Source: Escherichia coli | Lineage (GTDB): Bacteria; Pseudomonadota; Gammaproteobacteria; Enterobacterales; Enterobacteriaceae | Direction: 5' to 3' (one strand) | Assembly: GCF_003334335.1 (NCBI RefSeq) | Contig: NZ_QOWQ01000131.1 | Length of the DNA stretch: 1,005 bases | Shown here: piece by piece, positions 1 to 1,005 of the stretch | Numbering within the stretch: position 1 is the stretch's first letter | How the letters are laid out: each line of letters starts with the position of its first letter | Position numbers and translations under genes: made by a program | Notes under the pieces: generated by a model | Seen by the model: only the letters and a program-made list of their open reading frames with translations | Databases searched by the model: none | Told to the model about the DNA's origin: nothing

Positions 1-1005
1 GGATACGTCGCTTTTGCCCCCGTGATATCTGTCAGCGTCAGCGTATCTGCTGTAAAGCCATCATTTGTCCACATCACAAGGTCAAACGCCGTCTGCTCTG
101 TACCATCAATCACCGGAACGACTCTTTCGCTGTTATTTCCCGCAAAGCGGAAAACAACCGTATGCCAGTTATGGTCAAACGCACCAAATGTACCCAGTTG
201 TGCATTCGACGTGCCCTTGTGGTGCATAAGATTCAGATTTGATGCATCCGTCTGAAGGAAGAATGATGCCAGCATACTGTTTGCTGCCGCGCCTGACGCC
301 CACTGCGACACCGGCCAGTAGAGACCAAAGACAAACTGTCCGTTCACCAGTTCGCTTCCATCCGGAATTTTGAACCGTACGGCAATTTCACCCCCCTTGC
401 TGAGAAGATTTTTTGCCTCCTCCACTGCAACAGTACGGAACATTTTCCAGGACGTCAGTTTACCGGGCTGTTTTTCCAGTCGCAGCGCTTTCCGTCCACC
501 GTCATCAGTCACAGTGCCTTTGCCACCGGCAGCCCCCCACTGCTGCTCTGTCCATACACCATTTCCACTGTTCGCATCATATTCAGCCACCGTCCTGGTA
601 CTGCTCACGGCCTCATCATGACCAGTACCAGCAACACCGCCATCCTGCGGTTTCTCAACACCCGGTACCCCCGGACTGACATCATCACCGGGAGTTGTAC
701 CACCCGACTGCGGTGCGCTCTGCCCGGTAAGGAACGATAATGTCCGCCCGGCGTACTGCAAAACGGCACCTGCCAGGCGGTCTGAAACAAGGCCTCTTCG
801 CGCCCATGAACTGAAGTGCGTTTTACGATCGGCTGACGTCCAGTTACTGGCAGTGCGTGACGCAGCGCCATAGTATCCCGCCGGGATAATGTCCGGATCT
901 TCTGACGGCTCGTTTGTCGGCACATTCACACCATGCTCATCCGTCATCAACGGCACAAAGTGAATATTCTGCGCAGCTTTGCCTTTATACCCACCGTAAA
1001 CCGCC
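1..1005 (-). CDS. Internal fragment of a large protein, partial at both ends; putative extracellular receptor- or carbohydrate-binding protein (phage tail fibre-like or adhesin-like) with a C-terminal LamG/ConA-like lectin-fold domain. Function is putative.
   Basis: Minus-strand frame with codons at plus 1004->3 is stop-free for 334 codons: I checked every plus-strand triplet starting at a multiple of 3 and found no TTA, CTA or TCA. Every other frame is broken by stops. Translation N->C begins AVYGGYKGKAAQNIHFVPLMTDEHGVNVPTNEPSEDPDIIPAGYYGAASRTASNWTSADRKTHFSSWARRGLVSDRLAGAVLQYAGRTLSFLTGQSAPQSGGTTPGDDVSPGVPGVEKPQDGGVAGTGHDEAVSSTR... and ends ...GAFDHNWHTVVFRFAGNNSERVVPVIDGTEQTAFDLVMWTNDGFTADTLTLTDITGAKATY. 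Composition (Gly/Thr/Ala/Ser/Val-rich, 9 Trp, 0 Cys) is protein-like. Confidence refers to this being real coding sequence; the functional label is much weaker (about 0.3-0.4). Confidence 0.9.
3..590 (-). other. Predicted LamG / concanavalin-A-like lectin (jellyroll) domain; C-terminal part of the fragment, continuing beyond the plus-strand 5' edge of the window
   Basis: Motif pattern recognised by eye, in N->C order: GEIAVRFKIPDGSELVNGQFVFGLYWP (beta-strand region with conserved aromatic), then a Gly-rich loop, then FDHNWHTVVFRFAGNNSERVVPVIDG (plus 102..179). The W-H-hydrophobic run followed about 12 residues later by hydrophobic-x-(D/N)-G is the characteristic core of LamG-like jellyroll domains (Pfam Laminin_G_3-type pattern). 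No profile search was run. Confidence 0.5.
597..731 (-). other. Low-complexity Gly/Pro/Thr/Asp-rich interdomain linker (protein level)
   Basis: Translation LTGQSAPQSGGTTPGDDVSPGVPGVEKPQDGGVAGTGHDEAVSST has no hydrophobic core residues and is rich in G, P, T, S, D, typical of a flexible hinge. On the plus strand this appears as a C-rich antisense stretch. Confidence 0.5.
732..1004 (-). other. N-terminal segment of the fragment; unassigned fold, probably the C-terminal end of an upstream domain
   Basis: Translation AVYGGYKGKAAQNIHFVPLMTDEHGVNVPTNEPSEDPDIIPAGYYGAASRTASNWTSADRKTHFSSWARRGLVSDRLAGAVLQYAGRTLSF has mixed composition and looks globular. I recognise no motif in it. Confidence 0.3.

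Follow-up and report, generated by a model that had tools for sequence, protein, structure and literature searches.

A probable interdomain linker in a prophage NanS-p type esterase of Escherichia coli and its exchange together with the lectin-like C-terminal domain

Within a 1,005-nucleotide stretch of Escherichia coli DNA (the window), positions 597..731 very probably encode the second of the interdomain linkers in a prophage NanS-p esterase, whose three domains are DUF1737, an SGNH/SASA catalytic domain like that of NanS, and a lectin-like, putatively carbohydrate-binding domain. NanS-p esterases make O-acetylated sialic acids from mucin usable by both pathogenic and commensal E. coli lysogens. 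The linker marks the transition from the enzyme to the glycan-binding module, and it is also the point at which binding modules are swapped. An earlier note on this DNA had proposed a flexible linker of about 45 residues between two globular segments, and this description is borne out: solved structures flank the stretch, and the predicted model gives it a pLDDT of 21–31 and no secondary structure. The three-domain architecture with a lectin-like C-terminal domain (CTD) has been published for NanS-p (PMC10462455, PMC8065619), as have the linkers, the C-terminal variability, and the interdomain cleavage. Our finding is correct but already known; the mapping of breakpoints adds detail without a new kind of feature and leaves the understanding of the NanS-p family unchanged. 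The position of the linker is useful for allele annotation, construct design, and the typing of nanS-p variants.

A single reading frame is open across all 1,005 bases of the window. It lies on the minus strand, where it runs for 334 codons from a first base at window position 1004. The full gene (L001:5072-7060, 662 aa) is annotated as “SASA family carbohydrate esterase”. Both a chromosomal prophage gene of E. coli NCTC9112 and phage PhiR5_1 match the window at 100% identity. The window sequence was found in 36 of 5,426 complete E. coli genomes; a plasmid search with it gave no match. In the annotated neighbourhoods of NCTC9112 and PhiR5_1, the gene is preceded by the Q region, tRNA genes, TerB, and DUF3927, and is followed by DUF1378, DUF826, holin, and lysozyme, an order from Q to holin that is the same in the related loci L003, L006, and L007. 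It therefore occupies the lambdoid prophage position between the antiterminator Q and the holin S, where the gene for the prophage sialate O-acetylesterase, nanS-p, canonically resides (PMC10462455). As every defining feature that can be addressed from sequence is present, the gene is assigned to the prophage NanS-p type esterases, among which this allele is a distinct variant.

Pfam matches place DUF1737 (PF08410) at aa 3–50 (E 2.3e-15), outside the window, SASA at aa 81–276 (E 4e-9), and DUF6645 (PF20350) at aa 511–619, corresponding to window positions 78..404. [quoted passage not shown] Since the first match runs to residue 333 of 337, NanS stops just where the linker begins, and aa 395–447 form a gap left uncovered by both solved homologues. 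Foldseek comparison of the predicted model gave the same assignments, with 3pt5 at a TMt of 0.83 and 6yp6 at a TMt of 0.90 (rmsd 2.0, 43% identity). Next after 6yp6 came the sialic-acid-binding lectin domain of the V. cholerae sialidase, calreticulin lectin domains, and BoNT Hc domains, matches that justify the name “lectin-like” for the downstream domain, as the earlier note had it. That note had also read the protein as a modular two-domain architecture. The modularity stands, but the domains number three, and what was taken for a separate N-terminal segment is in fact the last 84 residues of the catalytic domain. The positions of these and the other features are given in Table 1.

Table 1. 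Features located in the 1,005-nucleotide window, with positions counted from its first base
Feature	Window positions	Strand	Basis or remark
Internal part of the prophage nanS-p gene	3..1004	-	aa 311–644 of 662 (WP_126502619.1); overruns both window ends
C-terminal part (aa 311–394) of the NanS-like SGNH/SASA catalytic domain	753..1004	-	3pt5 match; mean homologue identity 0.72, 0% gaps
SGNH block RKTH (aa 370–373), with the presumed catalytic His373	816..827	-	R370 and H373 invariant in 37 homologues
Conserved end of the catalytic domain (aa 384–397, SDRLAGAVLQYAGR)	744..785	-	Left anchor/breakpoint zone of the linker-CTD cassette
Interdomain linker, broad sense (aa 395–447)	594..752	-	No cover by solved homologues, low pLDDT, extreme composition, low identity
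9-nt in-frame indel (Gly416-Asp417-Asp418)	681..689	-	Protein and DNA alignments; present or absent among alleles 94–99% identical
C-terminal lectin-like jelly-roll domain (aa 448–644 in the window; ends near aa 656)	3..593	-	6yp6, Foldseek, pLDDT 80–93
Two antisense “shadow” ORFs, not genes	370..679	+	Listed mechanically; opposite a strongly supported gene

The predicted catalytic serine block GQSN (G85, Q86, S87, N88) is invariant in the same set of 37 homologues, and we infer a catalytic role for His373 in the RxxH block. This block has been listed as RSSH, RASH, or RPTH in NanS and the NanS-p of Stx phages (PMC10462455), a list from which the RKTH of the present allele group departs. Further invariant residues (S384, D385, R386, L387, L392, A395, and G396) mark the very end of the catalytic domain. 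On the other side of the linker, all four aromatic residues proposed to line the sugar site are retained in the CTD as F534, Y539, F559, and F627.

We examined the composition of the stretch in the frame of the 662-residue protein. Codon 402 starts at window position 731 and codon 446 ends at position 597, so that 597..731 spans aa 402–446; the peptide quoted in the earlier note (QSAPQSGG...AVSST) lies at aa 405–446. The abrupt switch to low-complexity sequence described there is confirmed: G, P, S, T, D, E, and Q together account for a fraction of 0.76 of the linker but 0.43 of the remaining protein, while bulky hydrophobic and aromatic residues together with cysteine (FILMWYC) make up 0.02 against 0.23. 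Among all 45-residue windows of the protein, the linker ranks first in polar/Gly/Pro content and has both the lowest entropy and the lowest hydrophobic content, and the same maximum was reached by only 5 of 2,000 shuffles of the protein. The longest run free of FILMWYC covers 49 residues (aa 403–451); the next longest, of 21 residues (aa 48–68), is the other interdomain linker.

Structure prediction with AF2 agrees with this picture, in that it shows the stretch neither as ordered nor as packed into a domain, although the underlying alignment was shallow (37 sequences, pTM 0.49). The pLDDT falls below 50 for aa 397–444, with block means of 31, 21, 21, and 23 over aa 401–440, the lowest confidence in the model, and DSSP assigns no secondary structure at aa 404–445; the CTD, by comparison, reaches the values given in Table 1. 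The model also drops below 50 at aa 331–381, a part that aligns confidently to the NanS crystal structure, so low pLDDT by itself is weak evidence, and we treat the prediction as supportive and not decisive.

An alignment of 113 full-length homologues shows how variable the linker is. Identity to the query averages 0.76 over the catalytic domain, falls to 0.30 (27% gaps) in the linker, and rises again to 0.55 in the CTD, so that identity breaks at the junction and no conserved sequence runs straight across it. The linkers fall into 15 types (clusters) with 29 distinct strings. Their length varies as well: the equivalents of G396 and W466 are spaced 42–75 residues apart, a spread of 33 residues, with one artefactual exception in a protein that carries internal duplications and a deletion. 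A conserved ...HFSSWARRG[IL][IV]SDRLAxA[IV]LxxAG[RK] leads into linkers whose types cannot be aligned with one another, and the CTD then opens with its first strand. All linker types are rich in P, S, T, G, E, and A even though length and sequence vary. The Gly-Asp-Asp indel inside the linker is consistent with a relaxed constraint on its length. Two homologues outside the window, P0046 and P0059, carry internal duplications of 85–100 aa in the SASA domain, and P0046 also lacks the first half of the CTD; these rearrangements may reflect assembly collapse among paralogous prophage copies, or may be real.

The earlier note had further suggested that the junction is a site of domain swapping. Exchange is indeed documented by breaks in the DNA, but the usual breakpoint falls on the linker's N-terminal edge and not inside it. 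When linkers and domains were clustered separately, linker distance and CTD distance were correlated at 0.94, and domain pairings proved incongruent. One catalytic-domain cluster (listed pairs 96–98% identical) bears five CTD/linker types, with identities to each other of 42% and 12%; conversely, homologue P0019 has a linker and CTD 100% identical to those of the query but a catalytic domain only 77% identical. A sharp DNA break separates P0024 and P0042, which are about 98–100% identical through gene nt 1180 (aa 394) and then about 45% identical, the mismatch rising from 0.02 to 0.45, before identity returns to about 100% soon after the stop codon. In two further DNA pairs, the break falls at aa 393 in one and at aa 400 in the other. 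Between the query and locus L003, DNA identity falls at about aa 400–407 and recovers about 130 nt past the stop codon, at the start of the DUF1378 gene. Across E. coli genomes, blastn homology to the window stops at position 771 (aa ~388) in 153 of 189.

A max-chi-square scan likewise clusters breakpoints at aa 381–400. As such clustering could reflect differences in rate between domains, we accept it as recombination only in combination with the incongruent domain pairings and the sharp DNA breaks. Near-100% identity that collapses at aa 393–400 demonstrates cassette exchange at the junction. As read from the alignments, the usual breakpoint is the N-terminal edge of the linker (aa 393–400, around window positions 735–760) and not its interior, and the linker is inherited with the CTD as a single exchangeable cassette. 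On the same grounds, this cassette is bounded on the left by the conserved final helix of the catalytic domain (...SDRLAxA[IV]LxxAG[RK]) and on the right by the start of the next gene. A different pattern is seen in PhiR12_1/JE86, where a linker patch alone (~aa 389–450) has been replaced, with 44–67% nucleotide and 27% amino acid identity and a length difference of 2 residues, between flanks that are 82–100% identical.

The NCTC9112 genome (NZ_LR134079.1) contains five to six places that match, and other genomes contain up to seven. Several nanS-p paralogues are thus present in one cell and offer ample substrate for cassette exchange.

To place the allele among known systems, we compared it with the NanS-p proteins of phi24B (vb_24B_21/gp84; PDB: 6yp6) and 933W (z1466/L0105). 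These share the domain order DUF1737, SASA, DUF6645, the slot from Q/stx to holin S, low-complexity interdomain linkers, and a lectin-like jelly-roll CTD. The present allele differs from them in carrying RKTH, not RSSH/RASH, as its SGNH block, and in residing in a non-Stx prophage, where tRNAs, TerB, and DUF3927 stand upstream instead of stx. A tRNA-Ile gene, two tRNA-Arg genes, and the TerB-family and DUF3927 genes (L001 3567..3816 and 3987..4579) occupy the place that stx has in Stx phages, making the locus a non-Stx version of the Q–S region.

Compared with the 645-aa alleles, which are tied to 6yp6 by a shared 32-residue segment (TLLSYLAS…VVSDA), the present allele has a catalytic domain about 72% identical, a CTD about 47% identical, and a linker that is longer, Gly-rich, unalignable to theirs, and without an SSP motif. 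The chromosomal NanS (YjhS) of E. coli (PDB: 3pt5) has a homologous catalytic domain (53% identity) but ends at the equivalent of aa ~397 and has no linker, lectin-like domain, or DUF1737. More broadly, the arrangement resembles that of glycoside hydrolases and esterases with carbohydrate-binding modules (CBMs), in which a linker of variable length, rich in Pro, Ser, Thr, and Gly, leads to a non-catalytic sugar-binding beta-sandwich and modules are shuffled in evolution (Boraston et al. 2004, as cited in PMC8065619). The present protein differs from that paradigm in that glycan binding by its CTD is putative and in that it is phage-borne, with a phi24B homologue displayed on the capsid.

Given these likenesses, we hypothesized that the linker serves as a flexible tether joining the glycan-binding module to the esterase. 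The lectin-like domain would hold a glycan, for example mucin, while the esterase reaches adjacent O-acetyl groups, and the tethered enzyme could then work processively on polymeric O-acetylated sialoglycans. This proposal draws on the general paradigm of catalytic domain, linker, and CBM and on the NanS-p literature, in which de-O-acetylation of Neu5,9Ac2 or mucin glycans was shown for other NanS-p alleles and carbohydrate binding by the CTD is put forward as a proposal only (PMC8065619). The linker may in addition be an exposed, protease-sensitive segment. In phi24B, gp84 is reported to measure ~70 kDa in fresh virions and ~35 kDa after storage, with CTD peptides confined to the large form, and cleavage between the catalytic and C-terminal domains has been reported, as have interdomain linkers and an earlier autoproteolysis of the purified protein (bioRxiv 10.64898/2026.04.10.717836).

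These observations on gp84 raise the question of whether the segment serves chiefly as a programmed (auto)proteolytic site that would free the lectin-like domain after phage release, rather than as a passive tether. The size shift and cleavage of gp84 (bioRxiv 10.64898/2026.04.10.717836) speak for this reading, and the linker described here is equally exposed by composition and AF2 prediction. The SSP motif proposed for gp84 self-processing, the sole motif its authors could name, occurs in the 645-aa alleles (PSSPSG) but not in the linker described here, so sequence-specific self-processing is not supported for this allele; moreover, the mutual unalignability of the linker types points to generic protease sensitivity and away from a specific recognition sequence. 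We therefore regard a programmed cleavage site as possible but doubtful. The earlier note had instead framed the junction in terms of fibre or adhesin genes; on that reading the segment would be a hinge behind exchanged receptor-binding tips. A lectin-like CTD and cassette exchange at the junction do resemble the host-range cassettes of fibres. The gene, however, proves to encode a NanS-p esterase between Q/tRNAs and holin, ahead of the lysis cassette, whereas the tail genes of PhiR5_1 lie 15–25 kb downstream; its core is the NanS-like esterase matched to 3pt5, and Pfam returned no fibre or adhesin family. In addition, gp84 is reported to decorate the phi24B capsid through its DUF1737, and so to be attached to the capsid, not the tail (bioRxiv 10.64898/2026.04.10.717836). 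A fibre or adhesin hinge is accordingly most improbable.

Equally hard to credit is that the stretch forms an ordered part of an adjoining domain, or a collagen-like or other repeat structure. It is Gly/Pro-rich and contains short PG motifs (PGDD, SPGVPGV), as such a structure might. Neither G-X-Y periodicity nor DNA-level tandem repeats (TRF) were detected in the linker, which holds only short direct repeats at chance level. The lack of predicted secondary structure at the lowest confidence of the model, the variable length (42–75 residues) and freely occurring indels such as GDD, and the fact that NanS ends before the stretch while the crystallised CTD starts after it all weigh against order. 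An interdomain linker remains our preferred reading of the segment.

Extending this reading, the linker and lectin-like domain could together form a dedicated, often-swapped “glycan-specificity cassette” between two recombination anchors, the last esterase helix and the start of the DUF1378 gene, with the linker type also setting the rate at which the lectin domain is shed from the capsid-displayed esterase. We offer this as speculation that is rather unlikely to hold in full. If it were true, the Gly-rich, SSP-less linker would give processing kinetics unlike those of the phi24B type, and lambdoid phages would tune mucus and glycan adherence as fibre tips tune host range.

The earlier note had also ascribed two Pro/His/Ser-rich plus-strand ORFs, at 370..621 and 413..679, to the linker. 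Both frames exist, but the linker does not account for them, because it overlaps only 25 of 252 nt (10%) of the first and 83 of 267 nt (31%) of the second; their Pro/His/Ser-rich parts lie mainly opposite aa 447–530 of the CTD.

At the level of RNA, an Rfam scan of the window returned only a sub-threshold chance match outside the linker, and structured RNA was rejected as an explanation. Near the C-terminal end of the linker, the minus (mRNA) strand forms a stable predicted hairpin at window positions 588..638 (dG -25.1 kcal/mol, z -4.26, with 0 of 200 shuffles as stable). The hairpin is unchanged in alleles with at least 94% identity and is destroyed in JE86/PhiR12_1 by a 6-nt deletion of its 3' arm. 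Since it is lost in the next allele type, it gains no support from covariation, and we set aside a functional mRNA hairpin as allele-specific and unsupported.

Treating the 645-aa alleles as phi24B gp84 throughout was likewise dropped, since the SISSP N-terminal motif of gp84 sits in another DUF1737 type, that of P0046 and P0059. In the podovirus phi24B, the DUF1737 of gp84 is reported to dock on the T=9 capsid (bioRxiv 10.64898/2026.04.10.717836). PhiR5_1 (L002/L005; PV340545.1 25.7-33 kb) is annotated with the lambda-type head genes Nu1, A, W, B, Nu3, D, and E. The DUF1737 of the query is 95–98% identical to that of the 645-aa alleles and only 66% identical to the SISSP-bearing type.
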